A stretch of DNA of 64,000 nucleotides from assembly GCA_023818695.1 (NCBI GenBank), contig JAMWCF010000001.1, positions 147,306 through 211,305 on the forward strand, given 5' to 3'. Shown here one piece after another: positions 623-49,907 of this stretch (position 1 is its first letter; the number at the start of each line of letters is the position of its first letter). The translations under genes and the position numbers were made by a program. Under the pieces are notes generated by a model. The model was not told the origin of the DNA and did not search any database. It worked only from the letters and a program-made list of their open reading frames with translations. This DNA is from Candidatus Omnitrophota bacterium (lineage in GTDB: Bacteria > Omnitrophota > Gorgyraeia > 1-14-0-20-64-10).

Positions 623-880
623 GGCCTGAAACTCTGTGCGCCTCCTCACGAGAGAGGCGACATAGCTGCAGGTCGGGATAACCTTCAATCCCTCCTCTTT
701 GGCGTAGCGGAAGCCGGTCTCTACCAGTTTTTCAGCTATCCCTCGGTGACGAGCATTCTCCGGTACGTAGGTGCTGTAGAAGTCCAGCGCGCCGCCGGTC
801 CGATTGTAGGAAAGGACCGCCTTTTCGCCGCCCAGATCGATCACGAAGCGGCTGCCTCTTTCATCGTGGATCACTTCCAT
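611..880 (-). CDS. small GNAT-fold N-acetyltransferase (YjdJ-like, 89 aa)
   Basis: I chose the internal ATG at 880. The product (MEVIHDERGSRFVIDL...YVPENARHRGIAEKLV...VIPTCSYV) resembles the short GNAT family. The ATG overlaps the upstream stop (TGATG). The 76-aa extension in the ORF track is R/P-rich and overlaps the neighbouring gene. Confidence 0.7.
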   Translation of the reverse strand: MEVIHDERGSRFVIDLGGEKAVLSYNRTGGALDFYSTYVPENARHRGIAEKLVETGFRYAKEEGLKVIPTCSYVASLVRRRTEFQALVA

Positions 881-1170
881 CAGGAAGCGGAGGAGTCGAT
901 CGTTTTGGCCAGCTGGAAATCCTTGGGAGTTAGTCCGCCGGCCGAGTGGGTGGAAAGGGTGAGGGTCACCTTGTTGTAAAGGATCAGGATGCCCGGGTGA
1001 TGGTCTTGGGATTCGGCGCAGCCGGCCACTTTGTTGACGAACCGGATCGCCTCCATGAATTCTTTGAACTTGTATGTTTTCGTGATCCGGCCGCCGGTCT
1101 GTTCCCACCCCGGGATTTCACGCAGGAGCGCCGCGACGGCTTCGCCGGAAAGCTTTTCGGCGCCGGCCAT
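880..1170 (-). CDS. pterin-4a-carbinolamine dehydratase (DCoH/PhhB family, COG2154)
   Basis: Family signature CAESQDHHPGILILYNKVTLTLSTHSAGGLT is present. The ATG at 1170 overlaps the stop of the upstream moeZ-like gene. Confidence 0.85.
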   Translation of the reverse strand: MAGAEKLSGEAVAALLREIPGWEQTGGRITKTYKFKEFMEAIRFVNKVAGCAESQDHHPGILILYNKVTLTLSTHSAGGLTPKDFQLAKTIDSSAS

Positions 1171-2654
1171 CAGTACCTCGGCATACCGGGATCGACCTCT
1201 TCGGCCCATGCGTCCACGCCGCCGGCCAGCGACTTGATCTTTTTGAAGCCGGCCGATTTCAGGAGCTCGGCGGCCTTCCGGCTGCGCATCCCCTTGTGGC
1301 AGTAAAGGACCATTTCGTCCGCCGAGTCCAGCTCCGACATCCTCCTGGCGAACTCGGAGCTCGGGATGAGGCGGGCCCCCTCGATATGGCAGATTTCATA
1401 TTCGTGCGCTTCCCGGACATCAATCAGCGTAATGTTGGCTTTCTCGCTCAAGAGTTTTTTTAGCTCCGGTGCGCTGATCTCCTGGACTCCGTTGGCTTGC
1501 GGCGCGGCGGCTGGCGTCTCCTCGCCCCGACGCAGACCGCAGAACTCCTCGTAGTCAATCAGCTTCCGGATGGAGGGGTTCGGGCCGCACAGAGGGCAGT
1601 CCGGGTTCTTCTTCAGCTTCAGCTCGCGGAACCGCATTTTCAATGCATTGAAGAGCAGCAGCCGTCCGATCAGCGGCTCGCCGTTTCCAAGAATCAGCTT
1701 GATCCCTTCGGTGGCCTGGATGGTGCCGATGATCCCCGGCAGGATCCCCAAGACCCCTCCCTCGGCGCAGGATGGGACCAGTCCCGGCGGCGGCGGTTCG
1801 GGGTAAAGACAGCGGTAGCAGGGACCCCGTTTGGCATCGAAGACGGAGGCCTGCCCCTCGAACCGGAAGATGGAGCCGTACACGTTCGGTTTACCCGTCA
1901 GGACGCAGGCGTCGTTGACCAGGTAGCGGGTGGGAAAGTTATCGGTACCGTCGATCACGATGTCGTAATTTTTGATGATCTCCATGGCGTTTTCAGAAGA
2001 CAGGCGGACCTCGTGCGTTTCGATCCTGATGTGGGGGTTAATCGCCTGAAGCCGCTCCTTCGCGGCCTGGAGTTTTGGTTTGCCGACGTCCTGCGTGGTA
2101 TAGAGGACCTGCCGCTGGAGGTTCGTGAAATCGACCACGTCAAAATCAACCAGCCCGATCCGCCCCACACCGGCTGAAGCCAGGTAAAGCCCCAGCGGGG
2201 AACCAAGCCCGCCGGTGCCGATCAGGAGCATGGAGGCGGCCTTGAGTTTTTTCTGGCCTTCCACCCCCACCTCCGGCATGATCAGGTGACGGCTGTACCG
2301 CTTGATCTCATCATGGGAGAGATTGACCGGCTCGTCGGCGCCACCGGCGATGGAGGGGACGATGGTCAAAGCGTCGGTCTCTTTGAGGGCCGTTTGAAGC
2401 CCCTGCGCGTGCCGGATATCTTCGTCATTGACGAAGACGTTCACGAAAGAGCGGAGTTTGCCTTCTTCTTCATAAAGGTGGGGTTCGAGCGCCTCATGCT
2501 GGCGGACAAGATCCTTCAAGGCCTCTCCGACGGTTCGCCCGGTGACCCGGATCGTCTCCTCTTGGCCGACGAACCTTTGCAGGGCCGTCGGGATATAGAC
2601 AGGGATCGTATTATTGTTTCCAGAATTCTTCATCGAGATACCGTTCGCCTCCAT
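1170..2654 (-). CDS. three-domain fusion: CysO/MoaD-like sulfur carrier (ends SIAGG) + MoeB/MoeZ E1-like adenylyltransferase + rhodanese
   Basis: aa 1-105 resemble mycobacterial CysO (IPTALQRF.G, FVNVFVNDEDIR, TIVPSIAGG). aa ~112-370 form a ThiF/MoeB fold (IGTGGLGSP, CYRC and CPLC zinc motifs, PSCAEGGVLG). aa ~395-494 form a rhodanese domain with active-site loop CHKGMRS. The start is ATG 2654 or ATG 2633; both overlap the end of cysM. Confidence 0.85.
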   Translation of the reverse strand: MEANGISMKNSGNNNTIPVYIPTALQRFVGQEETIRVTGRTVGEALKDLVRQHEALEPHLYEEEGKLRSFVNVFVNDEDIRHAQGLQTALKETDALTIVPSIAGGADEPVNLSHDEIKRYSRHLIMPEVGVEGQKKLKAASMLLIGTGGLGSPLGLYLASAGVGRIGLVDFDVVDFTNLQRQVLYTTQDVGKPKLQAAKERLQAINPHIRIETHEVRLSSENAMEIIKNYDIVIDGTDNFPTRYLVNDACVLTGKPNVYGSIFRFEGQASVFDAKRGPCYRCLYPEPPPPGLVPSCAEGGVLGILPGIIGTIQATEGIKLILGNGEPLIGRLLLFNALKMRFRELKLKKNPDCPLCGPNPSIRKLIDYEEFCGLRRGEETPAAAPQANGVQEISAPELKKLLSEKANITLIDVREAHEYEICHIEGARLIPSSEFARRMSELDSADEMVLYCHKGMRSRKAAELLKSAGFKKIKSLAGGVDAWAEEVDPGMPRY

Positions 2655-3547: not shown

Positions 3548-4390
3548 CTACCAGATTCCCAGCTCCGCTTTGGCCTCTTCGGAGGCCATTGTTTTCGGAT
3601 CCCACGGAGGCGACCAGACCAGTTCCGGCTGAACCTCATTCACCCAGGGCAGTCTGCCCACGACCCCCTGCACCTGTCCCTTGATGACCGGCCCCAGCGG
3701 GCAACCGGGACTGGTGAGGGTATAGATGATCTTCACGGAGCCGTCGTGGATCTCGATGCCGTAGATGAGCCCCAGATCCACGACGTTCATGTTTAATTCC
3801 GGGTCGATGACCCTTGTCAGCGCGGCCCGGACCTCCTCCTCTTTGCTGGAGGAAGACCGGATGGGCTGCGCTCCGGCGGAAACTTCATGAGCAGGGAATC
3901 TGTCGGTATCTGATTTCATCCCCTCCTCCCCCTCCACGTGGCTGGCCTGGTTTTCCCCCCGCTCGCGCGCCAAGATCCCATCCAGCAGGGTGTTCCATGC
4001 CAATATCGCGCATTTGATCCGGACCGGGTACTTCTTGATCCCCTCGAGGGCTTCCAGGTCTTCCAATTCTCCCGGAAACTCCATCGGCTTCGATTCCAGC
4101 ATCAGTTTCTTGAAGCTGCCGATGATCTCCTTTGTTTCGGCGAAGCTCTTTCCCTTGACCGCCTCCGTCATCATGGAGGCGGAGGACTGGCTGATCGAAC
4201 AGCCCTTTCCTTCGAACTTCAGGTCCTGGAGGATGTCGCCCCTGACGGCCGCCGTCAGCTCGAGCTCGTCGCCGCAGAAGGGATTGGCTCCCTGCGCCCT
4301 GAAATCCGGTTTCTCCAGCCGGCCATGGTTTCGCGGGTTTTTGAAATGTTCCAGGATGATGTCCCGGTACAGATCATCTGCGAGAGACAA
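3548..4390 (-). CDS. SufU/IscU-like scaffold fused to a C-terminal DUF59 (SufT/MIP18-like) domain
   Basis: N-terminal domain: LYRDIILEHFKNPRNHG, NPFCGDELEL, GKGCSISQSSASMM, IKCAILAW. A linker of about 45 aa follows. C-terminal domain: ALTRVIDPELNMNVVDLGLIYGIE and TLTSPGCPLG. The likely start is TTG 4390, 10 nt after AAGGAG; the track start TTG 4426 is also possible. Confidence 0.8.
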   Translation of the reverse strand: MSLADDLYRDIILEHFKNPRNHGRLEKPDFRAQGANPFCGDELELTAAVRGDILQDLKFEGKGCSISQSSASMMTEAVKGKSFAETKEIIGSFKKLMLESKPMEFPGELEDLEALEGIKKYPVRIKCAILAWNTLLDGILARERGENQASHVEGEEGMKSDTDRFPAHEVSAGAQPIRSSSSKEEEVRAALTRVIDPELNMNVVDLGLIYGIEIHDGSVKIIYTLTSPGCPLGPVIKGQVQGVVGRLPWVNEVQPELVWSPPWDPKTMASEEAKAELGIW

Positions 4391-5612
4391 CGGAAAAGAT
4401 CTCCTTTGCTTTCCGGAGGGCGGCAACGAGAAGATCCGCCTCTTCCAGTGTGTTGTACAGATAAAAGCTGGCCCGGGCGGTGGCGACCACCCCCAGCTTC
4501 CTCATAAGGGGTTTGCAGCAGTGGTGGCCCGCTCGGATCGCGATCCCGGCGTCATCCAGGATCTGCCCGAGGTCGTGCGGGTGGAGATCCTGGACGTTGA
4601 ATGAAACAGCCCCGCCTCGGACCGCGGGGTCCATCGGGCCGTACACAGTAATTCCCTCCACCTGCCGGAGCTTTTCCAGCGTGGTGCGGGTCAACTCCGC
4701 TTCATGGGCCCGGATCTCCGGCATCCCGATCCCTTTGAGGTAGTCGATGGCCGCGCCGAAGGCGATCACATCGGCGATGTTGGGGGTCCCCGCTTCGAAT
4801 TTCCAGGGCAGGTCGTTCCATGTGGAGTGGTCCAGCCAGACGTCCTTGATCATGTCCCCGCCGGACAGGAAAGGGTCCATCTCTTCCAGGATCGCCTCCT
4901 TTGCGTACAGCACGCCTACCCCGGTGGGGCCGAGCATCTTGTGGGATGAGAAGGCCAGGAAATCGCAGTTCAGGTCGACCACGTTCACCGGCATGTGAGG
5001 AACCGCCTGCGCCCCATCCACCAGGACAGGAATCCCCTTCGCGTGGGCCATTTGGATGATCTCTTTCACCGGGTTGATGGTGCCAAGGACATTGGACATC
5101 AGGGTCAGCGAAACCAGCTTCGTTCGGCCTTCCAGGAGTCCGGGGACCGCGCCCATATCAAGCCGGCCGTCCGTGACGACTGGGATGAATTTGAGCCGAA
5201 GCCCTTTTCTCTGGGCCAGAATTTGCCAGGGCACGAGGTTGGAATGGTGCTCCATCTCCGTCAGGAGGATCTCGTCACCCTGCCGAAGGTGCTTCAGCCC
5301 CCAGCTGTGGCTGACCAGGTTGATCGACTCGGTGGTATTCCGGGTGAAGATCACCATCGTCGGTTTGGGAGCCCCGATGAAGCGGGCTGTCTTCTCCCGG
5401 ACCCCCTCGTAGAGGGCGGTCGATTCTTCACTCAAGGCGTGAATTCCCCGGTGGATGTTGGCGTTGTGCAGGGTGTAGTAATCCGCCAGCGCTTGCACCA
5501 CCTGGAGTGGTTTCTGCGAGGTGGCGGCGTTGTCCAGATAGACCAGCGGCTTGTCGTTGACCCGCCTCTTCAGGATCGGGAAGTCCTCTCTTATCTTCTT
5601 CGCGTCCAGCAT
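4374..5612 (-). CDS. sufS: cysteine desulfurase SufS
   Basis: Class V aminotransferase motifs SSHKMLGPTGVGVLY (PLP lysine) and RAGHHCCKPL (active-site Cys). Start at ATG 5612 (MLDAKKIREDFP...), 8 nt after the sufA stop. Confidence 0.9.
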   Translation of the reverse strand: MLDAKKIREDFPILKRRVNDKPLVYLDNAATSQKPLQVVQALADYYTLHNANIHRGIHALSEESTALYEGVREKTARFIGAPKPTMVIFTRNTTESINLVSHSWGLKHLRQGDEILLTEMEHHSNLVPWQILAQRKGLRLKFIPVVTDGRLDMGAVPGLLEGRTKLVSLTLMSNVLGTINPVKEIIQMAHAKGIPVLVDGAQAVPHMPVNVVDLNCDFLAFSSHKMLGPTGVGVLYAKEAILEEMDPFLSGGDMIKDVWLDHSTWNDLPWKFEAGTPNIADVIAFGAAIDYLKGIGMPEIRAHEAELTRTTLEKLRQVEGITVYGPMDPAVRGGAVSFNVQDLHPHDLGQILDDAGIAIRAGHHCCKPLMRKLGVVATARASFYLYNTLEEADLLVAALRKAKEIFSVVSRR

Positions 5613-5620
5613 GCTTTCCT

Positions 5621-5944
5621 TTATACGCTGAATGAGTGACCGCAGCCGCACGACCCCTTCGCGTTTGGGTTCTCGATGGTGAAACCGGCTCCTGTCATGG
5701 CGTCGACCCAGTCGACCCGGCAGTTGTCCACCATCGGCAGGGATTTTGGGTCGACGACCACCTTGATCCCGTTGTTGTCGAAAACGGCGTCCTCGGAGGA
5801 GGGGTTCTGGTCGAAATCCATCGCGTAGGAGTATCCGGAACAACCCCCTCCCACCACCCGGATCCGCAGGGCATACCCTGTTTTTCCCTCCGACTCCTGG
5901 AGTGTTTGGACCTTCTTTATCGCTTTTTCCGTGAGTGTGATCAT
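5621..5944 (-). CDS. sufA: HesB/IscA-family Fe-S carrier (SufA/ErpA-like)
   Basis: GGGCSGYSY and the C-terminal GSCGCGHSF cysteine motif. 107 aa. Confidence 0.85.
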   Translation of the reverse strand: MITLTEKAIKKVQTLQESEGKTGYALRIRVVGGGCSGYSYAMDFDQNPSSEDAVFDNNGIKVVVDPKSLPMVDNCRVDWVDAMTGAGFTIENPNAKGSCGCGHSFSV

Positions 5945-5956
5945 CGTATCCTCCCT

Positions 5957-6265
5957 TTAGATTTGTATGAGAACGTCATTTCCATCCACCTTAACCGGGA
6001 ATGTCTTCACCGGGACGACGGCGGGCAGGGTGATCGCCTCACCGGTTTTTACGTTGAATCGGGCGCCGTGCCGGGGACATTCCACCTCCTCTCCCTCCAG
6101 GGTCCCCTCCCCGAGCGGGCCCCCATCATGCGTGCACAGGTCCTCAATTGCGTAAAATGCGCCGCCGTTGCGGGCCAGGGCGATCCTGCGGCCCTTGGCC
6201 TCCACCACCTTGATGCTTCCTTCCGGCAGATCGCTGGTCTGCGCCGCCTTAACCCAGCCGCTCAT
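5957..6265 (-). CDS. Rieske-type [2Fe-2S] ferredoxin-like protein
   Basis: Rieske motifs LCTHDGGPL and ECPRHGARF. ATG 6265 forms an ATGA overlap with the sufD stop. Confidence 0.8.
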   Translation of the reverse strand: MSGWVKAAQTSDLPEGSIKVVEAKGRRIALARNGGAFYAIEDLCTHDGGPLGEGTLEGEEVECPRHGARFNVKTGEAITLPAVVPVKTFPVKVDGNDVLIQI

Positions 6266-7470
6266 GCGCCGTTGAGTCTCCTCTTTAATTCCGACATCAG
6301 CCGTTCGCGGAGCTCTTCCGCGGGGATCCTCTGCAGGATCTGCTCGAAGAAACCTTCCACGATCAGATGTTCCGCTTCGGCGGGCGCAAGCCCTCGGCTG
6401 TTGAGATAGTAGATCTGGTCCTGGTCGACCGGCCCCACGGCCACACCGTGCGTGCATCGCACATCATCGGCCAGGATCTCGAGCATCGGGACCGAATCGG
6501 CGGAGGCGCCGTCGCTCAAGAGCAGGTTTCTGTTGGCCTGGTAGGCGTCCGATTTCTGCGCTTGTTTTTCGATCCGGATCAGCCCGGTGTAGACCGCTTT
6601 CGAGCTGTCTTTCAGGGCGCTCTTGTACAGCAGGTCACTGCGGGTTTGTCCCGAACGGTGGTCCTGCACCGTGTGGAAGTCGAAATGCTGGGAATCCGAA
6701 CCGAACAGCACCCCGAGCAGGTCCGCTTGCGCCCCTTTCTCCTGGAGAATCGTTTCAATCTGCGCCTTCGTCGCTTTCGCCCCCAGCGCCGCGTGGATAT
6801 TCAGGAAGCTCGCATCCCGAGCGATCTCCGTCCGCTGGGTGTAGATCTCCGATATGTTTTCCCCCCACTGCTGGAGGTGAATGTAGCGCAGTGTCCCCTC
6901 CTCCCCGACCGAGATCTCCACCATTTCATCGGAGAAGGCGGGGTTGCCTCCTCCGGCCGCACCGATCCTCTCGTCTATCAGGGTCGCTTCCGAGCGCCGT
7001 CCCATCACGATGACGACGTGGGGAAAGAAGGCCAGGGCGCCCGCCGATTCGGAGATCCGGACCCGCAGGGGTGTCGGGATCTTCACACCGTCCGGGACGA
7101 AGACGAACACCCCCTGCCGCCACAGGGCCTCATGCAGGGAGACATGCTTCGCGAGCCCCAGCGGCCGGCCGGTCCGGAAGAGGTGTTTCTCCATCAGGTC
7201 GGGGAATTGGCGAAGGGCCGTGCTCAAATCGGTGACGATGACCCCCGACCGGATCCATTCCGGTGCCGGGGTTTCGAAGCTCACCTGCAGCGCTTCCTTC
7301 GGATCGAAACCGGCCGGTTCCCACCGGAAGGAATCCGGATCGGTCCGCCGCCATTCCTCGTCCGTTTTGAGGGGCCAGGGAAGGGAGTTAAACTTCTCCC
7401 ACCCCTCCCGGCGCAGCCGCAGCAGCCGGCTTGAAGATTCCGGTCCGAGCCGCTTGAGGACCTCTTCCAT
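6262..7470 (-). CDS. sufD: Fe-S cluster assembly protein SufD
   Basis: SufB/D-family C-terminus (DQIYYLNSRGLAPAEAEHLIVEGF). The start overlaps the sufB stop. Confidence 0.85.
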   Translation of the reverse strand: MEEVLKRLGPESSSRLLRLRREGWEKFNSLPWPLKTDEEWRRTDPDSFRWEPAGFDPKEALQVSFETPAPEWIRSGVIVTDLSTALRQFPDLMEKHLFRTGRPLGLAKHVSLHEALWRQGVFVFVPDGVKIPTPLRVRISESAGALAFFPHVVIVMGRRSEATLIDERIGAAGGGNPAFSDEMVEISVGEEGTLRYIHLQQWGENISEIYTQRTEIARDASFLNIHAALGAKATKAQIETILQEKGAQADLLGVLFGSDSQHFDFHTVQDHRSGQTRSDLLYKSALKDSSKAVYTGLIRIEKQAQKSDAYQANRNLLLSDGASADSVPMLEILADDVRCTHGVAVGPVDQDQIYYLNSRGLAPAEAEHLIVEGFFEQILQRIPAEELRERLMSELKRRLNGA

Positions 7471-8879
7471 CAGCCGACAGATCCCTCCATCTCCAGCTGG
7501 ATGAGCCGGTTCAACTCCACCGCGTATTCCAGAGGGAGTTCCTTCGCGAAGGCCTCGAAGAAGCCGTTGACGATCATGGTGGTGGCCTCCTGTTCTTTCA
7601 GGCCCCGGCTCATCAGGTAAAAAAGCTGTTCCTCTCCCACCTTGCTGACGGTCGCTTCATGCCCGATCTGGACGTGCTTGGCGTCTATCTCCATGGTGGG
7701 GTATGTGTCCGAGCGGGAGATCTCATCCATCAGCAGGGCGTCGCATCGGACGGATGACTTGACGTGCTCCGCCTGGGGATAGACCTTCACCAGCCCTCGG
7801 TAGCTCGTTCGCCCGCCATCCTTCGAGATCGACTTCGCAAGGATCGTGGAGCTTGTTTCCGGGGCGGCGTGGACCATCTTGGCTCCGGCGTCTTGGTGCT
7901 GGCCCTTGCCGGAGAAGGCGACGGAGATCACCTCCCCCCTGGCTTTGCGGCCGACCAGGTAGACCCCCGGGTACTTCATCGTCAGCTTACTGCCGAGGTT
8001 GCCGTCCAGCCACTCCACGATCGACTCCTCATGGGCGATCGCCCGCTTGGTCACCAGGTTGTAGACATTCTTGGACCAGTTCTGGATGGTCGTGTACCGG
8101 ATGTGTGCGTGGGGCAGGGCCACCAGCTCCACGACCGCCGAATGCAGACTATCGGAGGCGTAAACCGGGGCCGTGCATCCCTCGATGTAATGGACTGATG
8201 AGCCCTCATCAGCGATGATCAGCGTTCTCTCGAACTGTCCCATGTTTTCCGCGTTGATCCGGAAGTAGGCCTGCAGCGGGATCGCCACCCGAACCCCCTT
8301 GGGCACGTAGATGAAGCTCCCTCCCGACCAGACGGCGGAGTTGAGCGCCGCGAACTTGTTATCAGCCGCTGGGATGACGGTTCCGAAATATTTCCGAACC
8401 AGTTCCGGATATTGCTTCAGGCCGTCATCCATTCCGAGGAAGATGACCCCCTGCTTCTCCAGGTCCTCCCGAATGGAGTGGTAGACAACCTCGCTTTCAT
8501 ACTGGGCGGTTACGCCGGCCAGGAACTTGCGCTCGGCTTCCGGGACGCCCAGCCGGTCGAACGTCTTCTTGATCTCTTCGGGCACGTCTTCCCATGTCCG
8601 GCCCTGTTTGTCGGTCGGTTTGAGGTAGTAATAGATGTTCTCGAAATCGATCTGGGAGAGGATCTCCAGGTTGGCCCAGGGGGGCAGGGGTTTCCTGTTG
8701 AAATGCTCCAGGGCCTTGAGACGCAGCTGCCTCATCCAGCCCGGCTCCTTCTTCATCCAGGAGATCTCTTCGACGATGTTCTTCGTCAGCCCCCTTTTCG
8801 CCTTGTAGACGTATTTCTCCGGGTCGTGGAAGCCGTATTCCTGCTCGTAGTTCTTGCCGACATCAATGCCCGGCTTCAT
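7470..8879 (-). CDS. sufB: Fe-S cluster assembly protein SufB
   Basis: Strong SufB-like translation ([19 protein letters not shown]..., [24 protein letters not shown]). Start at ATG 8879; the track extension is rejected. Confidence 0.95.
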
Positions 8880-9648
8880 GAGGCACCTCCTGACGCTCCC
8901 CCTGCGTTTTCTCCTCGTACGGGGCGTATCCCTTCCGCTCGAGTTCCAGGGCCAGCTCTTTGCCGCCGGACTCGATGATCCGGCCGTTGATGAAGACGTG
9001 CACGACATCCGGCTGGATGTAGTTCAGGATCCGCTGGTAGTGGGTGATCAGCAGTACTCCAAGCGCCGGTCCCCGCATCCGGTTGATCCCCTCCGCTACG
9101 GTCCGCAGCGCATCGATATCAAGCCCCGAGTCGGTCTCGTCCAGCACCGCCAGCTCCGGCTTCAGCAGGGACATCTGGAGGATCTCATGCCGTTTTTTCT
9201 CGCCGCCTGAAAACCCGTCATTGACGGCTCTGGTAGCGAAGTCTTCTGGAATTTCCAGCGTGGCCATGGTGGCGGTCAGTTGTTTCCTGAATTCCTTCGG
9301 CTGGTATCCTTCGCCGAAGCGGGCCTTCATGGCGGTCCGCAGGAAATTCGCTACGCTGACTCCCGGGATGGCGGTGGGATATTGGAAAGCCAGAAAGATT
9401 CCCGCCCGGGCCCTAGCATCGGTTTTCAAGCCGGTGATATCCTCCCCTTTATAAAGGATCTGTCCTTTGGTCACCTGGTATTTTGGATGGCCCATCAGGA
9501 CGTGGGAAAGGGTTGATTTGCCGGAGCCGTTGGGTCCCATCAAGGCATGGACTTGCCCTTTCTCGATCGTCAAGGAGATTCCCTTGAGAATCGCTTTCTC
9601 CTCCACCGATACATGGAGATTTTTGATTTCAAGCAATGGCCCGCTCAT
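8863..9648 (-). CDS. sufC: Fe-S assembly ATPase SufC
   Basis: Walker [13 protein letters not shown] signature FSGGEKKR, Walker [16 protein letters not shown] 9648 forms an ATGA overlap with the regulator stop. Confidence 0.95.
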
Positions 9649-10076
9649 ATTTTGAATCCTTTCTCCGCCCCCAAAAGATCGGAAAGAAAAATGCCGTCCA
9701 GGAAATTTTCCATCACCCGCGTCAGCGAAGCCCACGCCGACCGGACGCAACAGTCGTTGATATGGACGCAGGAGGTCAGGTTGCCGGTGAACCGGTCGCA
9801 GATCTCCTGCGTGGAAGGAACCTTTCCCAGGGCCCTGACCACCGATCCCAAGGAGATCTCTTCCGGTTTGCGGGTCAGGTGGTACCCCCCCTTGGTCCCT
9901 CTGACCGACTGGGTCAGCCCCGCTTGGTTCAGATGCCGCAGGAGTTTTTCCACGTAAGCAGGGGAGAGCCCCTCTTTCTGGGCGATCTCTTTGACTGTGA
10001 CTCCGTTCTCCACTCCGTTTTTCGCCAGTTGGAGAAGGCAGCGTAGCCCGTATTCTTCCTGTGCCGTTATCTTCAT
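9645..10076 (-). CDS. Rrf2-family transcriptional regulator (IscR-like)
   Basis: N-terminal winged HTH ([29 protein letters not shown]) and a cysteine cluster C-x9-C-x5-CC. It is the first gene of the suf operon. Confidence 0.85.
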
Positions 10077-12907: not shown

Positions 12908-14272
12908 ATGTTAGAATGGACGACTATGCGTACGTCCGACAAAAGATCTCCGGTCACGTTTCGGCGGACGGCGGCGTACAGAAAGGCCGTGGATCTGGTC
13001 AGGAAGCTCAAGGATGCCGGCCACGAGGCCCTGCTGGTAGGCGGTTGCGTCCGTGACCTGCTGATGGGGCGCTCCCCGAAAGATTTCGACATCGCCACCA
13101 GCGCCGTTCCGGAGCAGGTGGCGGCCCTCTTTCCCCGGATCATTCCCGTCGGGGTCCAGTTCGGGGTCCAGATTGTTGTCAGCGGCGGTTACTCCTTTGA
13201 AGTGGCCACCTTCCGGACCGATCTCTCTTACAAGGACGGCCGCCATCCGGAAGGAGTGCGCTTCTCCACGCCGGAGGAAGACGCCTTGAGGCGGGATTTC
13301 ACTGTCAACGGGATCTTTTTCGATCCGGTCGGACAGAAGGTGATCGATTACGTCGGTGGCCGGGCCGATCTGAAAAAGAAGCTGATCCGGGCGATCGGCA
13401 ACCCGGCGAAACGCTTTCAGGAGGACCGTTTGAGGATGCTCCGGGCGGTCCGCTTCGCCTCGGTCCTGGATTTCCGGATCGATCCGGCCACCTTCCGGGC
13501 GATCTGCCGGCTCGCCAGGGGGATCGGCGAGGTCAGTCGAGAGAGAGTTCGGGATGAGCTGGTCAAGCTTTTTACGGGACCGCACCCGGGCAGGGGGCTG
13601 TCCCTGCTGGATGAGAGCGGATTGCTTGCCGTCATCCTGCCGGAGGTGGCCAAGATGAAAGGGGTCCAGCAGCCGCCGGAGTTCCATCCGGAGGGGGACG
13701 TTTTCGTCCATACGCGAATTCTGCTGGACCGTCTGAAGAAGCCGTCGACGGTTTTGGCTTTCGCCGGCCTGCTGCACGATGTCGGCAAACCGCCGACGTT
13801 TCGGGTGGCCGACCGGATCCGCTTCGACGGCCACGACAGGGTGGGGGCGTCGATGGCCAAGCGGATCTGCCGGGAACTGCGCTTTTCCAACGCGGAAACC
13901 GAGGCGATCTCGGAAATCATCGGCGACCACATGAAGTTCAAGGATGTGCGCCGAATGCGGCTGTCCACCCTCAAGCGGTTCATGGCCCTTGGGACTTTTG
14001 AGGAGCAGCTGGCGATGCACCGTGCCGACTGCTTGGCCTCCCACGGTGATTTGAGCAACTGGAGGTTTTTGAGGAAGAAGCAAAAGGAGCTTTCTTCGGA
14101 AGAGCTCAAGCCGGAGCCGTTGATCAAAGGGGGCGATCTGCTGGAGATGGGATTCCCGGAGGGGCCTGCCATCGGGAAGATCTTGAAAGCGGTCGAGGAA
14201 AAGCAGCTGGAGGGGGATCTGAAATCGAAGGAATCGGCGTTGTCCTGGGTCCAGAAAGAGTTCCGGCGGTGA
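12908..14272 (+). CDS. cca: CCA-adding enzyme / poly(A) polymerase family with HD domain
   Basis: Nucleotidyltransferase motif LVGGCVRDLLMGRSPKDFDIAT and an HD motif LLHDVGKP. Confidence 0.8.
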   Translation: MLEWTTMRTSDKRSPVTFRRTAAYRKAVDLVRKLKDAGHEALLVGGCVRDLLMGRSPKDFDIATSAVPEQVAALFPRIIPVGVQFGVQIVVSGGYSFEVATFRTDLSYKDGRHPEGVRFSTPEEDALRRDFTVNGIFFDPVGQKVIDYVGGRADLKKKLIRAIGNPAKRFQEDRLRMLRAVRFASVLDFRIDPATFRAICRLARGIGEVSRERVRDELVKLFTGPHPGRGLSLLDESGLLAVILPEVAKMKGVQQPPEFHPEGDVFVHTRILLDRLKKPSTVLAFAGLLHDVGKPPTFRVADRIRFDGHDRVGASMAKRICRELRFSNAETEAISEIIGDHMKFKDVRRMRLSTLKRFMALGTFEEQLAMHRADCLASHGDLSNWRFLRKKQKELSSEELKPEPLIKGGDLLEMGFPEGPAIGKILKAVEEKQLEGDLKSKESALSWVQKEFRR

Positions 14273-15057
14273 AGCGGTGGTCTCCGATGCGCGAGAAACC
14301 GGCCTCCCCGGCGGAGGCGATTGCTTCCGTTTTCGCGTGGATCGGCATTTCAGCGGTGACCGTTTTCTGGGTGATCCCGATCGCTGTCGTCTTCCTTTTT
14401 CGCCGGTTTCTAGACCCGGACCTGCGCCTGGCGCATCATTTCGCCACCCGGTGTGGCAGGAACCTGATCGGGCTGGCGCCCGGTTCATCGGTCCAGGTTT
14501 TCGGTGAGGAGAATATTCCGGCTGACCGGCCGGCCATCTTGATGGCCAACCATTTGAGCTATGTGGACGTTCCTCTGCTGTGCTTCATCCGGCACCAGTT
14601 CAAATGGATGGCGGACGTCGGGCTTTTCAGCATTCCATTCTTCGGCTGGGCGATGCGGATGGCCGGCTATATTCCGGTCGACCGGGGCAACCCCCGGGCC
14701 GGGCTGCGCTCCCTGGAGCAGGCGAAGTTCTGGCTGTCCAAAGGGATCTCGATCTTCATCTTTCCGGAAGGGACCCGAAGCCAAACCGGCGTCTTTTCCA
14801 AATTTCAGACAGGGGGGTTCCGGCTGGCCGTCACCGCCGGGGTGCCGGTGGTTCCGGTGGTAGTGATCGGCACCCGGCAGCTTCTGCCGCGCAACAGCTG
14901 GATCTTCCGGTGGGGGATCAAACTGCAGATTCGGATCCTGGAGCCGGTTCTTCCCGACTCTTCCGATCCAAAGCAGGTCCGGGCCCTCTCGGCCCGGGTT
15001 CGGTCGAGCATGTTCCGCGCGTACCAGCAGCATCTCGGGGAGATCCGGGCTTCGTGA
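14269..15057 (+). CDS. plsC: 1-acyl-sn-glycerol-3-phosphate acyltransferase
   Basis: HX4D motif NHLSYVD and FPEGTRS. GTG 14269 forms a GTGA overlap with the cca stop; ATG 14287 is an alternative start. Confidence 0.85.
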   Translation: MKRWSPMREKPASPAEAIASVFAWIGISAVTVFWVIPIAVVFLFRRFLDPDLRLAHHFATRCGRNLIGLAPGSSVQVFGEENIPADRPAILMANHLSYVDVPLLCFIRHQFKWMADVGLFSIPFFGWAMRMAGYIPVDRGNPRAGLRSLEQAKFWLSKGISIFIFPEGTRSQTGVFSKFQTGGFRLAVTAGVPVVPVVVIGTRQLLPRNSWIFRWGIKLQIRILEPVLPDSSDPKQVRALSARVRSSMFRAYQQHLGEIRAS

Positions 15058-17502: not shown

Positions 17503-18627
17503 ATGTCCGAAGCTTCTTTGATCATCGCGGCAAGCGAGCAGAACGCCGATCTGTTTTACGCCACTGGCTTCTGGGCTCCCGATCCCTTCATATTCCTCCA
17601 GATCGGCGATAAGAAGCTTCTTTTGATGAGCGACCTGGAGGTAGACAGGGCCAGGTCGGAGTCCAAGGTTGACGAGGTGCTCTCCATCTCGCGGCTGGCC
17701 GACGACGCCAGGAAGCGGGGAATAGCCAAACCGGGGCTCGTGGATATCCTGGAGATCGTTTTGAAAGAGCGCGAGGTCGACGCTCTGCGGGTCCCTTCGA
17801 CCTTCCCAGTGGGAATCGCCGACCGGATCCGAGCGAAAGGATTTTCTCTGCGGGTCAGCGAGGATCCTTTCTTCCCGGAGAGGATGTGCAAGAGGCCCGA
17901 GGAGGTTGCCGCCATCCGGGAAACGATCCGCTTGACTGAGGAGGCGCTGCAGGCCGCCATTCGCCTGATCGAGGAATCGGAGATCAAGGGGGAGGACCTC
18001 TGGCTGCGGGGACAGCCGCTGACATCGGAACTGGTTCGCAAGGTCCTGCATTTGACCCTGATGGGTTCCGACTGCCTGGCGCAGGAGACGATCGTCGCCG
18101 GCGGCGCGCAGGCCTGCGACCCGCACTGCATTGGGTTCGGCCCCTTGAAGGCGCACAAGCCGATCGTCCTGGATGTCTTCCCGGTCTCCACGAAAAGCCG
18201 ATACTACGCAGACATCACCCGGACGGTGGTTAAGGGCAAGCCCAGCGAAACGCTGAAAAAGATGTACCAAGCGGTTCGGCATGGCCAGGAGATCGCCTTC
18301 GGGATGGTCAAGAACGGTGTTCAGGCGCAGACGATCCACCAAGCGATTCTGGATTACTTCGAAAAAGAAGGTTTTACAACAGGGGAGAAGAACGGCCGAA
18401 TGACAGGATTCTTCCACGGGACCGGGCACGGCCTGGGGCTGGAGATCCATGAGCCGCCCCGGATCTCTTCGACGCCTGACATTCTGAAAACCGGCCAGGT
18501 GGTGACGGTGGAACCGGGTCTTTACTATCCGGAGGAGGGAGGGATCCGGATCGAGGACGATGTCTTCGTCACCGCCACCGGCTGCGAAGTTCTTTCCAGC
18601 TTCCCGAAGGTTTTCGAGCTTTTCTGA
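17503..18627 (+). CDS. M24-family Xaa-Pro aminopeptidase
   Basis: Metal-ligand motifs DITRT, HGTGHGLGLEIHE, VEPGLY and GIRIEDDV. Confidence 0.85.
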   Translation: MSEASLIIAASEQNADLFYATGFWAPDPFIFLQIGDKKLLLMSDLEVDRARSESKVDEVLSISRLADDARKRGIAKPGLVDILEIVLKEREVDALRVPSTFPVGIADRIRAKGFSLRVSEDPFFPERMCKRPEEVAAIRETIRLTEEALQAAIRLIEESEIKGEDLWLRGQPLTSELVRKVLHLTLMGSDCLAQETIVAGGAQACDPHCIGFGPLKAHKPIVLDVFPVSTKSRYYADITRTVVKGKPSETLKKMYQAVRHGQEIAFGMVKNGVQAQTIHQAILDYFEKEGFTTGEKNGRMTGFFHGTGHGLGLEIHEPPRISSTPDILKTGQVVTVEPGLYYPEEGGIRIEDDVFVTATGCEVLSSFPKVFELF

Positions 18628-39241: not shown

Positions 39242-39634
39242 GTGGACAGTGTCCTGATCGAAGCGTTGGCTTGTTTTGCCAGGGTCGGCGTGCCGGCGTG
39301 GGAACGCCGGCGCAAGCAGAAGATCCTGGTGGACGCGGAGCTTTTCCTGGATTTAAGGAAGGCGGGCCGGTCGGACCGCTTTCAGGAAACGGTCGATTAC
39401 TCGGCCGTAGCGGCGCTGATCAGGGAGACGGCTGAGGCGAAGCCTTTTCGCCTGGTGGAAGCGATTGCGCAGGAGGCGGCCGAAAAGATCCTCCGGCGCT
39501 TCAAGGTGAAGCGGGTTTCCGTCAGGATCCGAAAGTTTTCGGTGCCCAGGACGCGCAGCGTTGGTGTGAGCGTCACCCGTTCGGCCGGAAAGAGGCGAAG
39601 CTCGTCGGGGTTTCCCAGAACCGGACCTCGGTGA
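39242..39634 (+). CDS. folB: dihydroneopterin aldolase
   Basis: FolB-like translation: IEALACFARVGVPAWERRRKQKILVDAELFLDL, ETVDYSAVAALI, VRIRK. GTG start. The last ~25 aa form a tail that overlaps queD. Confidence 0.8.
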   Translation: MDSVLIEALACFARVGVPAWERRRKQKILVDAELFLDLRKAGRSDRFQETVDYSAVAALIRETAEAKPFRLVEAIAQEAAEKILRRFKVKRVSVRIRKFSVPRTRSVGVSVTRSAGKRRSSSGFPRTGPR

Positions 39635-39980
39635 CGGGGAAACCGAGCTTCTTGGCCTCATCGAAGATCATCCGGCAGATTGTTTCGGCGGTGGGGTTCT
39701 GGTCGATGACGACGACGGGCTCTTTTTGAGAGGTAAGGATGCCCAGCAGGGGGTCGGTTTTGTTGAGCACCATCTTGTGGTCGAGGGTTTCGTCAACCCA
39801 GTTCTGCAGCCGGGATTTCATGTCATTGAAATCCATCACCATTCCCCGATGGTCCAGCTTGTCCGATGTGAGCTCGATCTGGACCTTGGCGTTGTGGCCG
39901 TGCAGAAACCGGCATTTCCCTTCGTAATTGAGGAGCCGGTGGCCGTAGCAGAAATGAATTTCTTTTGTGACCTTGTACAT
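39573..39980 (-). CDS. queD: 6-carboxytetrahydropterin synthase
   Basis: HFCYGHRLLNYEGKCRFLHGHN zinc/catalytic motif. 135 aa. Confidence 0.9.
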   Translation of the reverse strand: MYKVTKEIHFCYGHRLLNYEGKCRFLHGHNAKVQIELTSDKLDHRGMVMDFNDMKSRLQNWVDETLDHKMVLNKTDPLLGILTSQKEPVVVIDQNPTAETICRMIFDEAKKLGFPVTEVRFWETPTSFASFRPNG

Positions 39981-40007: not shown

Positions 40008-40679
40008 ATGAGAGCGATCAAAGATCAAGGCAACGCGGTGGCCGTGCTGGCCAGCGGCGGCGTGGAGAGCGCAGCGCTCATTGCGGAGGCGCTGCGGCGG
40101 TACCAGCGGGTCTATCCGATTTACGTCCGCAAAGGTTTTCAGTGGGAGCTGACGGAGCTGGTCCACTTGAGGCGCCTTCTGCGCGCTCTGGAATCGGACG
40201 GCCTGGCCCGGCTGACCGTGCTCCGTGTCCATGTCGAGGAAATCTACGGGAGCCACTGGAGTTTCGGCGCGGCGGCCACCCCCGGTTCCAAAGAGCCGGA
40301 CAGCGCGGTCTTTCTGCCCGGACGGAATCTTCTGCTGCTGACGATGGGGGGCCTCTTCTGCGGTGTGCGCAGGATCCCGACCTTATGGATCGGCATCCTG
40401 AAGGGGAACCCCTTCCATGACGCGAGGGCTGCCTTTATCCAGCAGGTGGAGGCGCTGCTCCACCAGTCGCTTGGCGTCGAGGTCCGGATCGCCGCCCCCC
40501 TGAAAGAGTTGACGAAGGTCGAGGTCATCAATCGGTGGGCAGACGTCCCGTGGCAGCACACCTTCTCCTGCATCCGGCCGGTCCGCCGCAGGCACTGCGG
40601 CCGCTGTCAGAAGTGCGCGGAGCGGAAAAAAGCTTTCCAGCTGGCGCGCATTCCTGACCAAACGCTCTATGGGCATTAA
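40008..40679 (+). CDS. QueC-family PP-loop ATPase (divergent 7-cyano-7-deazaguanine synthase-like)
   Basis: PP-loop ASGGVES, LPGRNLLLL and a C-terminal zinc motif SC...HCGRCQKCAERKKAF. The central substrate motifs differ from the canonical QueC I remember. Confidence 0.7.
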   Translation: MRAIKDQGNAVAVLASGGVESAALIAEALRRYQRVYPIYVRKGFQWELTELVHLRRLLRALESDGLARLTVLRVHVEEIYGSHWSFGAAATPGSKEPDSAVFLPGRNLLLLTMGGLFCGVRRIPTLWIGILKGNPFHDARAAFIQQVEALLHQSLGVEVRIAAPLKELTKVEVINRWADVPWQHTFSCIRPVRRRHCGRCQKCAERKKAFQLARIPDQTLYGH

Positions 40680-46649: not shown

Positions 46650-48086
46650 GTGCTCGCGGCCCTTGAGACACTGCCGCCTCCGAAAAAGGCCGCTGTTCCC
46701 CTCTTTCCTGGATGGGCTGCCGCCTTAGGTCCCGGTATTGTCTGGTTGGCCCTTGCCCAGGGCAGCGGGGAGCTGATCTGGTGGCCCTCTATGGTCGCCA
46801 AATATGGTCTGGCTTTTCTTTTCCTTCTGATCCCGGCTTGTCTGCTCCAGCTTCCCATTAACTATCATATCGGCTACTACACGCTGGCGACAGGCGAGTC
46901 GATCTTCCAGGGGTTTATCCGCTTCAACCGCTGGTTCGCGCTGTTCCTATGGCTGTTGATGACGGTGGCCTTCTTCTGGTTCGGGGCCTTCGCGTCGGCC
47001 GGAGGAACGGCGTTGGCGGCCCTCACCAATTTTCCGCAGGGCTGGACGGTTAAGGCGCAGACCTTCTTCTGGGCCTACGCGTCCATGGCCTTCTTCCTGG
47101 GGGCTTTGCTCTTGAGCCGAGTTGTTTATCGAGGCATCGAAAAGATCATGCTGCTGGTGTCCGTCGTGACCGTCCTGGGACTTCTGGGATCTTGCACACA
47201 CCCATCGGTCCTTCGGGTGATGCCGGACTTCATGGCCGGTCTGGTCCGGCCCGTTTGGCCTGCGGGAAGGGTCTGGGATCCGTCCGATGCCACCTTGCTG
47301 CTGACGGCCATTACATTCGCCGGCTTGGGAGGATTCTGGACTCTCTTCTATTCCTACTGGCTGCGGGAAAAAGGGGCCGGCATGGCGGCTATGATGGGAC
47401 ACATCACCAGCCCGATTACAGGCCGGCCGGAGAAGATCGCGTTAAGCGGCGCTGTCGCGCAGGAGGGGCCGTTTCTGGTTGAGCGCTGGAGACCCTGGAG
47501 GAGGTTTCTCATCGTCGACAGCGGCGTCGGAATTCTCGGGAACATTCTCACCACACTGATGACCTGCCTGCTAGCCTTCGCGGTCCTGCATCCGGAGGGT
47601 CTTGTGCCGAAAGATTACGAGCTGGCGGTCGTCCAGAGCAGGTTCTTTGAAATCCAGTGGGGTGCGGCCGGCCGGGCCCTGTTTCTGGTCGTGGCAGCGG
47701 CGTTCATGTCGGACACGTGGTTGGCCACGGTGGACGCGGTCAGCCGGATCAACACCGACGTGCTGGTCAGCCTGTTTCCGGCGGCGCGCCGGATCTCCAT
47801 CCGGAGTTGGTATTACCTATGGGTGGCCTGGCTGACGGCGGTGACGTCGGTGACCATGCTGTTTCAGACGCCGGGGATTCTGATTCTGCTTTCGGCGGTG
47901 ATTGGGTTTGCGGGGACAGTGCTGTTTACCGGCGCCTTGTTCGGGATCAGCTTCCGGCTTCTTCCTGCGATGCTTCCGGTGGCTTTGCGCCCGGGCCGTA
48001 TTGCCTGGACGGGACTGGCGGTTTCCTACGCGGCTTATCTGGTACTGGCCGCCGCCTACCTCTGGACCCTCTTCAGCCGGCCCTAA
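46650..48086 (+). CDS. Nramp-superfamily-like polytopic membrane transporter
   Basis: About 11-12 TM. N-terminal LGPGIVWLALAQGSGELIWWP resembles Nramp-related families. GTG start 2 nt after the upstream stop. Confidence 0.5.
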   Translation: MLAALETLPPPKKAAVPLFPGWAAALGPGIVWLALAQGSGELIWWPSMVAKYGLAFLFLLIPACLLQLPINYHIGYYTLATGESIFQGFIRFNRWFALFLWLLMTVAFFWFGAFASAGGTALAALTNFPQGWTVKAQTFFWAYASMAFFLGALLLSRVVYRGIEKIMLLVSVVTVLGLLGSCTHPSVLRVMPDFMAGLVRPVWPAGRVWDPSDATLLLTAITFAGLGGFWTLFYSYWLREKGAGMAAMMGHITSPITGRPEKIALSGAVAQEGPFLVERWRPWRRFLIVDSGVGILGNILTTLMTCLLAFAVLHPEGLVPKDYELAVVQSRFFEIQWGAAGRALFLVVAAAFMSDTWLATVDAVSRINTDVLVSLFPAARRISIRSWYYLWVAWLTAVTSVTMLFQTPGILILLSAVIGFAGTVLFTGALFGISFRLLPAMLPVALRPGRIAWTGLAVSYAAYLVLAAAYLWTLFSRP

Positions 48087-48865
48087 TACCGTTCGATCTG
48101 CGTCAGCAGGATATAGCTCAAATAATCCTTGCCGGCGATGGCCCGCAGCGCCCCCAGCTGTCTCCTGCGGAAGGTCAGCCGGCTGATACGGATCTCCTCC
48201 AGCGCGGCTTCCACCTTGTAAAACCGAAGGTAGTACAAATCAATCACCTGACGCTGCTTGGGCGGCAGCATTTGGACGACGCGGGTGACCCGGTGATGGT
48301 GGAACTCGTTCAGGAACCGGTAGGGGATGCAACGGAGGTAAGAATAGGGAGTCAGGAGCCGTTGCCTGCCGTCGGGCGGCTCCTCCATCGACTGGTAAGA
48401 CCGCAGGATGGTCGGCCACAGCTGCTGCCTGATGTAATTCCCGAACAGCCGGACTTCGACATGAGCGGGAAACTCCAGCAGACACGATTTAAAGCACTTG
48501 TGAACAAGCGAATGGAATTCTTTTTCACCAAAAACCTTGTAGTCTCCCCTGCAGTACCGCTTCTCATCCGGAGATCGGGGGATAAAGCGGCATCCCTGCA
48601 TGGAGAGCAGGTATTCCCAGCAGGAGAGCCCCCATTGGATCATCGGCTGAAAGAGATGGACCAGCTCCCCGTAGGCCGTCCCGAAGCCGGGTTCATCTGC
48701 TTGCCGGCGGCAGAGCAGGGCCCGGCGGGCCAGAGCAGCGATCCTCTTTCTCTGTTTCGGCAGGGGCGGGAGGGAAGGACGGCGGAAGACGCGCGGCATG
48801 GCGATATCCAGTGCGGGCGTTTCCTCCTGAACAGCAGCCGATATTTCGTCCGTTAATCGGATCAT
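48083..48865 (-). CDS. divergent sigma-70-family-like protein (region-4 HTH at C-terminus), 260 aa
   Basis: ATG 48865 (MIRLTDEIS...). C-terminus LPPKQRQVIDLYYLRFYKVEAALEEIRISRLTFRRRQLGALRAI resembles sigma region 4. The upstream half of the 492-aa track ORF overlaps a better plus-strand gene and is rejected. Confidence 0.55.
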   Translation of the reverse strand: MIRLTDEISAAVQEETPALDIAMPRVFRRPSLPPLPKQRKRIAALARRALLCRRQADEPGFGTAYGELVHLFQPMIQWGLSCWEYLLSMQGCRFIPRSPDEKRYCRGDYKVFGEKEFHSLVHKCFKSCLLEFPAHVEVRLFGNYIRQQLWPTILRSYQSMEEPPDGRQRLLTPYSYLRCIPYRFLNEFHHHRVTRVVQMLPPKQRQVIDLYYLRFYKVEAALEEIRISRLTFRRRQLGALRAIAGKDYLSYILLTQIERY

Positions 48866-48914
48866 GAGATTCAGGTGGCCTCTTCGGGAGACTATATCAT
48901 ATCCGGCGGGAGCG

Positions 48915-48943: not shown

Positions 48944-48964
48944 AAATGGACACGATTCCTTCAC

Positions 48965-49891: not shown

Positions 49892-49907
49892 TCTCGAGAG
49901 GTCTCCC

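Follow-up and report, generated by a model that had tools for sequence, protein, structure and literature searches.

A CysO-like sulfur carrier fused to its E1-rhodanese activator at the tail of an Omnitrophota suf operon: a predicted pro-protein with an internal Gly-Gly

How can a sulfur carrier be activated when its terminal glycine lies in the middle of a longer polypeptide? The question is raised by one gene in a 64-kb stretch of DNA from a Candidatus Omnitrophota bacterium (contig JAMWCF010000001.1, positions 147,306 to 211,305; hereafter the window, and coordinates given for its genes are window positions). The gene encodes a CysO-like beta-grasp carrier, a short linker, a ThiF/MoeB-type adenylation domain (E1) and a rhodanese domain. 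The Gly-Gly (GG) motif that ends the carrier is internal in the primary translation product, and 389 residues continue in frame behind it. Adenylation by an E1 requires a free carboxylate. Because GG continues in frame into the E1-rhodanese part, a free glycine carboxylate could be attained only after proteolysis. We consider it probable (about 0.65) that the precursor is cleaved after Gly98, which would release a 10.86-kDa CysO that feeds the cysteine synthase CysM.

The open reading frame (ORF) 1170..2654 on the minus strand encodes 494 amino acids (aa) from its first ATG at 2654. The true start is probably the ATG at 2633, which gives a product of 487 aa (MKNSGNNN...), because GGAGG lies 11 nucleotides (nt) upstream and NCBI uses this start for an identical protein (MCM8811564.1, labelled 'MoeB'). 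Residue numbers refer to the 487-aa protein, except for Pfam domain bounds, which are given in the 494-aa numbering. Pfam finds three domains in this single ORF, ThiS (19-105, E 6e-12), ThiF (120-354, E 2e-86) and Rhodanese (394-485, E 1e-21), and this bears out the in-frame fusion of a carrier to an E1 and a rhodanese that a first-pass annotation had proposed. The GG codons, placed there at about 2340-2345, lie exactly at these positions and close the carrier with TIVPSIAGG; the frame runs from GG into ADEP with no stop and no frame change in the window sequence, and the expected rhodanese loop CHKGMRS is present at residues 445-451. The uncleaved protein reads ...SIAGGADEPVNLSHDEIK across the junction, and after the linker ADEPVN the E1 opens with LSHDEIKRYSRHL. 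A cut of this 53.5-kDa protein after Gly98 would yield calculated fragments of 98 residues (10.86 kDa) and of 42.7 kDa (the E1-rhodanese).

The N-terminal domain is a CysO-like beta-grasp carrier, as first proposed, by Pfam (ThiS) and by several further comparisons. It passes the cut-off of the NCBIfam SAMP1 model (63.4 bits, cut-off 60), and phmmer aligns it end to end with the CysO proteins of Mycobacterium tuberculosis (3dwg_C, E 3e-17) and A. orientalis (4n6e_B, E 2e-18), with G97-G98 coinciding with the GG at the C-terminus of the CysO structures. An AlphaFold2 (AF2) model of residues 4-121 has a predicted local distance difference test score (pLDDT) of about 88-97 across the carrier domain. 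Foldseek ranks CysO structures at the top of its matches to this model (template modelling score, TM, 0.88-0.89; root-mean-square deviation, rmsd, 1.5-2.1 A), followed by SAMP1, MoaD-related proteins and Urm1.

The E1 part superposes on MoeB (1jw9_B; Foldseek TM 0.94, rmsd 2.4 A) and also on ThiF and Uba4. It carries GTGGLGS (139-145), DGTDNF (228-233), CYRC (272-275), SCAEGG (288-293) and CPLC (346-349), and the glycine-rich ATP loop, DGTDNF, the crossover-loop cysteine of SCAEGG, both CXXC motifs and the rhodanese cysteine are invariant in 79 aligned relatives. Residues C445 (the active-site cysteine, nt 1299-1301), G448, R450 and S451 of the rhodanese domain are invariant among aligned relatives as well. 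A ThiF-type adenylation domain followed by a C-terminal rhodanese with its active-site cysteine is the architecture of MoeZR, and the protein has it. MoeZ/MoeZR as defined by Voss et al. (2011) also has NYRD in place of the first CXXC and lacks the second (PMC3227635). Here both CYRC and CPLC are invariant, and since the two CXXC motifs are intact the E1 is, by its motifs, of the MoeB/MoeBR type and not MoeZ/MoeZR in that sense. The NCBIfam scores agree, with MoeB models above MoeZ (PRK07411 MoeB, 555 bits, cut-off 633; PRK07878 MoeZ, 505, cut-off 647; PRK08762 MoeB, 491, cut-off 449, passed). Thus, from the original description of a MoeB/MoeZ-type E1 with a rhodanese, the two domains stand and the MoeZ assignment does not.

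The fusion is not rare. The same three-domain architecture occurs in 97 of the best 120 database matches, from sources that include Omnitrophota, Armatimonadota, Acidobacteriota, TA06 and Chthonomonadetes. We scanned GTDB (one genome per species) with an alignment of the carrier and junction as the query and found at least 80 loci, 61 fused and 19 split among the matches listed. These are mostly Acidobacteriota, with Gemmatimonadota, Chloroflexota, Armatimonadota, Verrucomicrobiia, Bacteroidota, Cyanobacteriota and Eisenbacteria also present. A scan of JGI metagenomes likewise gave at least 80 loci, 60 fused and 20 split among the matches listed. Hence the fusion, which the first-pass annotation had called unusual inside a suf operon, is widespread and, in several phyla, the commoner form of this type of operon (61/80 in GTDB, 60/80 in metagenomes, among the matches listed). 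No Omnitrophota locus is among the matches listed from either scan. Assemblies from NCBI, ENA, JGI and Logan together hold more than 200 independent fused examples, and 22 further Omnitrophota-type proteins from independent assemblies have the same uninterrupted junction. The Omnitrophota clade stands out in that the fusion sits within a suf operon that retains cysM and lacks the JAMM peptidase gene. A separate observation concerns L045 (DASPYU010000019.1), a metagenome-assembled genome labelled 'Thermoplasmata archaeon' that carries a bacterial-type cysM-JAB-fusion operon; the operon may have been transferred horizontally, or the contig may have been binned wrongly.

Every fused relative retains the motif P-S/A-I/V-A-G-G, and its GG is invariant. 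The form P-S-I-A-G-G is unchanged in all 97 fused proteins among the best 120 database matches, whose linkers span 2 to more than 30 residues. Across relatives the linker behind GG ranges from 2 residues (GGAELSHEE, GGADLSQDE) to about 40 with no sequence conservation, and the residue that follows GG may be A, S, T, R, V, K, L, N or G. The full-length AF2 model (predicted TM-score 0.58) has pLDDT below 50 at residues 94-101 and high confidence on both flanks. Because GG is invariant, the linker hypervariable and the model disordered at this point, the junction bears the signature of a flexible spacer behind a functionally constrained GG. An N-terminal ubiquitin-like (Ubl) domain, GG at the junction and a flexible, non-conserved linker are sequence features of Ubl-fusion pro-proteins such as MoaX and SAMP1-MoaE, and all of them are found here.

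Outside Omnitrophota the gene order is cysM, then a JAB-domain (JAMM) gene (PF14464/PF01398), then the fusion. We scored loci with a hidden Markov model (HMM) built from 120 JAB homologues and counted a JAB as adjacent when it was on the same strand and no more than 300 nt upstream. Of the GTDB loci among the matches listed whose upstream sequence spans 1.5 kb or more, 67/76 have an adjacent JAB and 71/76 a JAB anywhere in the locus; for fused GTDB loci the adjacent count is 56/59, and none of these GTDB loci has cysM without JAB. Comparable metagenome loci, again among the matches listed, have a JAB adjacent in 41/48 and anywhere in the locus in 44/48. The JABs of these operons carry an intact JAMM motif (HxHx7Sx2D).

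The split loci are informative about the same site. Their carriers end past GG, with tails of 1-15 residues (for example GGR, GGH, GGMY, GGAA, GGNGDR and GGARDRV, each followed by a stop). Carrier and E1 are in the same frame in 14 of 18 split loci, several of them divided by a single stop (for example GGNGDR, stop, MALSNDEVKRYSRHL), and on this ground the fused and split states would interconvert by one point mutation that gains or loses a stop codon in the spacer. Same-frame split junctions are seen in L007, L022, L046, L055, L056, L062, L069, L071 and L074, mostly near 8260-8310. A phmmer search of the carrier domain against 1.84 billion cluster representatives returned mostly short or fragmentary sequences, usable for tails and not for counts of fused versus free forms; among the nearest 50%-identity representatives with the motif (n=138), GG is the C-terminus in only 9, and 53 continue for 1-20 residues past it. 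Since split orthologues too carry residues past GG, trimming would be a clade-wide property, and the entire clade looks like pro-carriers that need C-terminal trimming, with the fusion as the extreme form. Behind GG, several CysO-like carriers have a tail rich in cysteine (GGCCCCCCL, GGCCVMTCGT, GGCCALI, GGACACYCPCRMNA and GGCCPCGCCCCPR; P0257, P0260, P0289, P0320, P0336, P0385 and L069 5199-5579), although some of these may be fragmentary metagenome gene calls. We know of no described function for such tails.

At the window locus the fusion gene is the tail of a suf operon, as originally described, with the order Rrf2-sufC-sufB-sufD-Rieske-HesB/SufA-sufS-sufU/sufT-cysM-fusion (Table 1). As in CysO-CysM-Mec operons (types 4c/4d of Iyer et al. 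2006), a pyridoxal phosphate (PLP) enzyme of the cysteine synthase family adjoins the carrier. This cysM scores 342 bits on TIGR01138 (cysM), under the cut-off of 394; it is intact and translationally coupled, its 3' end overlapping the first 23 nt of the fusion gene. The Mec/JAMM gene of such operons is missing here. The earlier statement that no JAMM protease is encoded nearby holds for the whole 64-kb window, where a motif regular expression, tblastn and hmmsearch with two operon JABs, the JAB HMM and Pfam on all of the roughly 60 predicted proteins found no JAMM/MPN gene. The only peptidase-like genes in the window encode an M24 aminopeptidase (17503-18627), a DJ-1/PfpI protein (55381-55932) and a peptide deformylase. 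Four assemblies (the window, L003, L004/L005 and L088/L089) share the operon order, continued by a gene for pterin-4a-carbinolamine dehydratase (PCD) behind the fusion, and have no JAB in it.

Sister genomes show other states. The window, L003, L004 and L088 retain cysM and the fusion. L172 (5100-7194) has an intact cysM, 75% identical to that of the window, followed by an E1-rhodanese without a carrier domain. L006 (9945-10030) and L170/L171 (L170 5110-7158) have neither cysM nor carrier; the junction from sufU/T to E1 is clean in L170, and as a remnant of cysM L006 still has 13 codons of its 3' end (GGARYLDEEFWKQ, then a stop) together with the same MKNSG... N-terminus. The unfused E1s of these close relatives are 78-84% identical to the window E1. 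An origin of the unfused form by a single deletion is ruled out, as the MKNSG... N-terminus and the cysM remnant sit between the two missing segments. The module is thus being dismantled stepwise in parts of the Omnitrophota clade. Where it is retained, the carrier domain is under purifying selection: in five JAMM-less Omnitrophota genes nonsynonymous divergence (pN) is 0.20-0.33 against a saturated synonymous divergence (pS) of 0.5-0.8, with dN/dS of about 0.13-0.5, similar to the rhodanese domain. Among the 22 Omnitrophota sequences the carrier is on average 69% identical, and the GG motif is intact in all.

We propose that translation yields a pro-protein and that a trans-acting peptidase cuts its flexible linker right after Gly98, producing a MoeBR-type E1-rhodanese and a CysO-type carrier of 98 residues whose Gly-Gly carboxylate is free. 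The E1 would then adenylate the C-terminal glycine of the carrier, and a persulfide on Cys445 of the rhodanese would turn the adenylate into a thiocarboxylate. In the co-translated CysM the thiocarboxylate could serve as the sulfide donor to the PLP-aminoacrylate, forming a carrier-cysteine adduct. Hydrolysis of the adduct by the same kind of peptidase would give cysteine and a recycled carrier, and the cysteine would be available to SufS of the same operon. For most lineages this role presumably falls to the JAMM/Mec-like protein whose gene lies between cysM and the fusion; the Omnitrophota clade would encode the peptidase elsewhere or have replaced it. Cleavage after GG by a trans-acting peptidase, already suggested in the first-pass annotation, is the reading best backed by the comparative evidence, namely the invariant GG, the variable linker, JAMM adjacency of about 87%, the tails of split carriers and the precedents discussed below.

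Several observations weigh against this scheme. The canonical pathway needs a peptidase twice, for processing and for the release of cysteine, and the JAB HMM (run with --max) detects no JAMM gene in 158 kb of Omnitrophota DNA (the window plus 94 kb from five related loci); because of this double need the absence is a real oddity of the Omnitrophota operon. Mycobacterial CysO is thiocarboxylated by MoeZR, not MoeBR (PMC3227635), and the window E1 is of the MoeBR type. The window CysM appears to be a generic family member that is not specifically closest to the CysO-dependent CysM of M. tuberculosis, which ranks about 33rd (3dwg_A, E 9e-54) among its PDB matches, which are cysteine synthases. 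SufS, which converts cysteine to persulfide, and CysO/CysM, which would convert persulfide to cysteine, would form a circle within one operon unless the rhodanese had another source of sulfur; as SufS strips sulfur from the cysteine that CysO/CysM would rebuild, the rhodanese is presumably fed by thiosulfate, sulfide or another donor. The module also appears dispensable, and is possibly eroding in the Omnitrophota clade, since sister genomes have lost the carrier with cysM kept (L172) or have lost both (L006, L170).

A JAMM encoded elsewhere in the genome would be the simplest answer to the missing peptidase. None of the best 120 of 8000 JAB homologues is labelled Omnitrophota, which cannot show whether the phylum has Mec-like JAMMs. 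In L031 and L080, JAB and cysM lie 5-6 kb from the fusion on the opposite strand. Two soil metagenome contigs from non-Omnitrophota lineages, L096 (1577-4020) and L136 (8992-11446), both at about 60% identity, have cysM followed by the fusion and no JAB in the contig, and from these JAB-less loci it follows that the JAMM gene has been lost or relocated more than once. It is unlikely that the Omnitrophota clade and such rare lineages handle both the precursor and the CysO-cysteine adduct without JAMM/Mec, by an unrecognised peptidase or by a carrier that stays attached as a tether; if they do, cysteine would be made by a Mec-independent, protein-mediated route coupled directly to Fe-S cluster assembly. 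A related and similarly improbable explanation is that the protein of JAMM-less lineages is never cleaved, and that its beta-grasp domain is a docking or regulatory module, either tethering the E1-rhodanese to CysM and channelling persulfide sulfur or auto-inhibiting the E1 site. This would fit the lack of a JAMM in the window and related Omnitrophota loci and the unrelated L096 and L136, the cysM of L172 beside a carrier-less E1-rhodanese hints that CysM can work without a carrier, and a non-carrier role was argued for a different Ubl-ThiF fusion by Iyer et al. 2006 (PMC1779556). However, GG is kept without exception in the JAMM-less clade too, where pure docking would not need it, and linkers of 2 residues leave an internal GG no room to reach an E1 or CysM active site as a loop. 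The carrier is also orthologous to those encoded beside an adjacent JAMM and to the split carriers, and the chemistry of adenylation itself demands a free carboxylate.

The three states seen in close relatives (cysM with the fusion; cysM with an unfused E1 in L172; E1 alone with a cysM remnant in L006) could also mark a decaying pathway that lost first JAMM, then the carrier, then cysM, with the carrier a relic and the protein serving only as an E1-rhodanese for MoaD, ThiS or TtuB-like carriers. We find this quite unlikely, as purifying selection on the carrier in the five diverged JAMM-less genes is comparable to that on the rhodanese, carrier identity and the GG motif are maintained across the 22 Omnitrophota sequences, and cysM is intact and translationally coupled. 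That the precursor is cut by a protease other than a JAMM, or is split in an intramolecular reaction, seems very unlikely. The peptidase of the mycobacterial fusion MoaX is still not known though mycobacteria encode Mec (PMC4326299), and the window does encode the M24 and DJ-1/PfpI proteins; but M24 enzymes are aminopeptidases, neither gene shows linkage to the operon, and no candidate follows the fused state in its occurrence. Self-cleavage through an N-to-O/S acyl shift would require Ser, Thr or Cys after GG (P1'), whereas P1' is Ala in the window and varies freely in relatives, and with no conserved nucleophile there autoproteolysis is ruled out. Finally, the chance that cysO and moeB are really two genes joined by a missed stop or frameshift is negligible. 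Split forms with a single in-frame stop do exist in other lineages, but the in-frame fusion recurs in independent assemblies (the 22 Omnitrophota-type proteins and the more than 200 fused examples), which in practice rules out an assembly or sequencing artefact. A separate internal start for the E1 is likewise rejected, as there is no in-frame start codon or ribosome-binding site between GG and RYSRHL.

Table 1. Coordinates of the fused gene, its parts and the neighbouring operon genes in the window.
Feature	Coordinates	Strand	Basis or remark
Fused gene: CysO-like carrier, linker, ThiF/MoeB adenylation domain, rhodanese; 487 aa + stop	1170..2633	-	
Carrier domain, CysO-like beta-grasp (ThiS/MoaD family), residues 9-98, end VPSIAGG	2340..2609	-	Pfam, NCBIfam, phmmer, AF2/Foldseek
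Gly97-Gly98 codons; predicted cleavage site after Gly98, predicted mature carrier C-terminus	2340..2345	-	Alignment to CysO structures
Linker ADEPVN, residues 99-104, carrier to E1	2322..2339	-	pLDDT < 50 at 94-101; variable among relatives
E1-like adenylation domain, ~residues 105-370	1524..2321	-	Pfam ThiF, Foldseek to MoeB
Rhodanese domain, ~residues 383-487	1173..1487	-	Pfam Rhodanese E 1e-21
PCD	880..1170	-	Start overlaps fusion stop, TGATG at 1168-1172
cysM-like PLP cysteine synthase, ~311 aa	2611..3546	-	Pfam PALP E 1e-68; start from 309-312 aa homologue lengths
SufU-SufT fusion protein (NifU_N + FeS_assembly_P)	3548..4426	-	
sufS-type cysteine desulfurase	4374..5612, start approximate (412 aa in relatives)	-	ORF; Aminotran_5 in syntenic loci
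HesB/SufA	5621-5944	-	Pfam; synteny with L003, L004, L088
Rieske ferredoxin	5957-~6265	-	Pfam; synteny with L003, L004, L088
sufD	6262-7470	-	Pfam; synteny with L003, L004, L088
sufB	7470-~8879	-	Pfam; synteny with L003, L004, L088
sufC	8863-~9648	-	Pfam; synteny with L003, L004, L088
Rrf2-family regulator, operon head	9645..10076	-	ORF; PF02082 in syntenic loci

The PCD gene is not specific to the carrier, because sister genomes have it behind their unfused E1 as well. Other pterin and queuosine genes of the window (FolB, PTPS/QueD-like and QueC, at 39242-39634 (+), 39573-39980 (-) and 40008-40679 (+)) are about 37 kb from it. Within the operon, SufU (NifU_N) and a SufT-like protein (FeS_assembly_P) are fused in a product of 292 aa, an arrangement conserved across the Omnitrophota suf operons seen, and the position of the small Rieske [2Fe-2S] protein gene (5957-6265) between sufD and HesB/SufA is conserved across related suf operons. 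SufB of L003 (2410-4896) has 828 aa with a LAGLIDADG_3 match, which suggests an intein; the window SufB is of normal length. Pfam (E <= 0.1) matches nothing in five window ORFs of 265-525 aa: 12911-14488 (-), 46650-48086 (+), 48083-49561 (-), 49788-50810 (-) and 51493-52290 (-).

The predicted pro-carrier fused to its E1-rhodanese would be a variation on the known CysO/CysM/JAMM sulfur-carrier pathway. If the proposed cleavage takes place, many mostly uncultured bacteria (among them Acidobacteriota, Armatimonadota, Gemmatimonadota and Omnitrophota) would make the carrier of a cysteine pathway as a pro-protein with its own activating enzyme. Ubiquitin precursors would then have a parallel in bacteria, with guaranteed 1:1 stoichiometry and a JAMM peptidase as the gatekeeper of sulfur flow, and the JAMM-less, suf-embedded Omnitrophota form would offer a natural test of whether Mec-type peptidases are indispensable to CysO/CysM chemistry. 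At present the fused proteins carry no label beyond 'MoeB' or 'ubiquitin-like small modifier protein 1', and because of this the carrier and the cysteine route are missed in metabolic reconstructions. We found no experimental study of the CysO::E1-rhodanese architecture in the literature.

A precursor with a short post-GG tail is also made in the HcyS/HcyD system, where a cluster-encoded JAMM trims the carrier to GG. Likewise, the post-GG tails of QbsE and CxnE (in QbsE/QbsD and CxnE/CxnF) have been assigned to JAMM trimming (PMC5925218). The split orthologues of the fusion resemble QbsE and CxnE in their tails of 1-15 residues, whereas the 'tail' of the window carrier is a complete E1-rhodanese of 389 residues.

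The cysteine pathway of M. tuberculosis, which Burns et al. are said to have described in 2005, consists of CysO, CysM, Mec and MoeZR. The window carrier is of the CysO type (38% identity to the M. tuberculosis protein, TM 0.86-0.88), its E1 has a C-terminal rhodanese, a CysM-family PLP enzyme is adjacent, and in most relatives a Mec-like JAMM lies beside the fusion. Unlike in M. tuberculosis, the window carrier is fused upstream of the E1, leaving GG internal, the E1 is MoeBR-type and not MoeZR, and the operon lacks Mec and sits at the tail of a suf cluster. In the mycobacterial cycle the carrier is adenylated, acquires a thiocarboxylate from persulfide sulfur and attacks the CysM aminoacrylate, and the adduct is then hydrolysed; Mec is the enzyme that hydrolyses CysO-cysteine (PMC3227635).

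Ubl-E1 fusions are common to archaea and bacteria (Makarova and Koonin 2010). Iyer, Burroughs and Aravind (2006) define operon type 4c as ThiS/MoaD with E1-rhodanese, JAB and cysteine synthase, predict that JAB frees ThiS/MoaD domains from fusion partners, and list under this type Solibacter usitatus, a member of an order in which the fusion is common; the passages searched contain no mention of a carrier-E1 fusion within type 4c (PMC1779556). The Campylobacter Ubl-ThiF fusion that they describe is different, with another Ubl family, no rhodanese and a separate ThiS beside it.

Linear carrier fusions that must be cut have precedents in other pathways. A linear SAMP1-MoaE fusion stays inactive until it is cleaved by HvJAMM1 of Haloferax volcanii (PMC4443979), and this is a JAMM/MPN+ cut of a Ubl-enzyme fusion after GG. 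Its substrate is engineered and archaeal, whereas the CysO::E1 fusion is natural, with the JAMM adjacent in most bacteria and absent at the window locus. A solved carrier fusion with a buried GG is also at hand in the Thermus thermophilus 'MoaD related protein' (PDB 1v8c_A, 168 aa), which has an internal GG at residue 87 followed by a second domain. MoaX, a natural MoaD-MoaE fusion of M. tuberculosis, requires a cut after GG82 for activity (PMC4326299). Like the window protein, MoaX carries an N-terminal beta-grasp carrier on a functional partner, with GG at the junction and the peptidase not encoded beside the gene. The two differ in their pathway, molybdopterin as opposed to cysteine synthesis, and in the standing of the cut, demonstrated for MoaX and predicted for the window protein; the partner of MoaX is the sulfur acceptor MoaE, whereas that of the window carrier is the E1 that would activate it.

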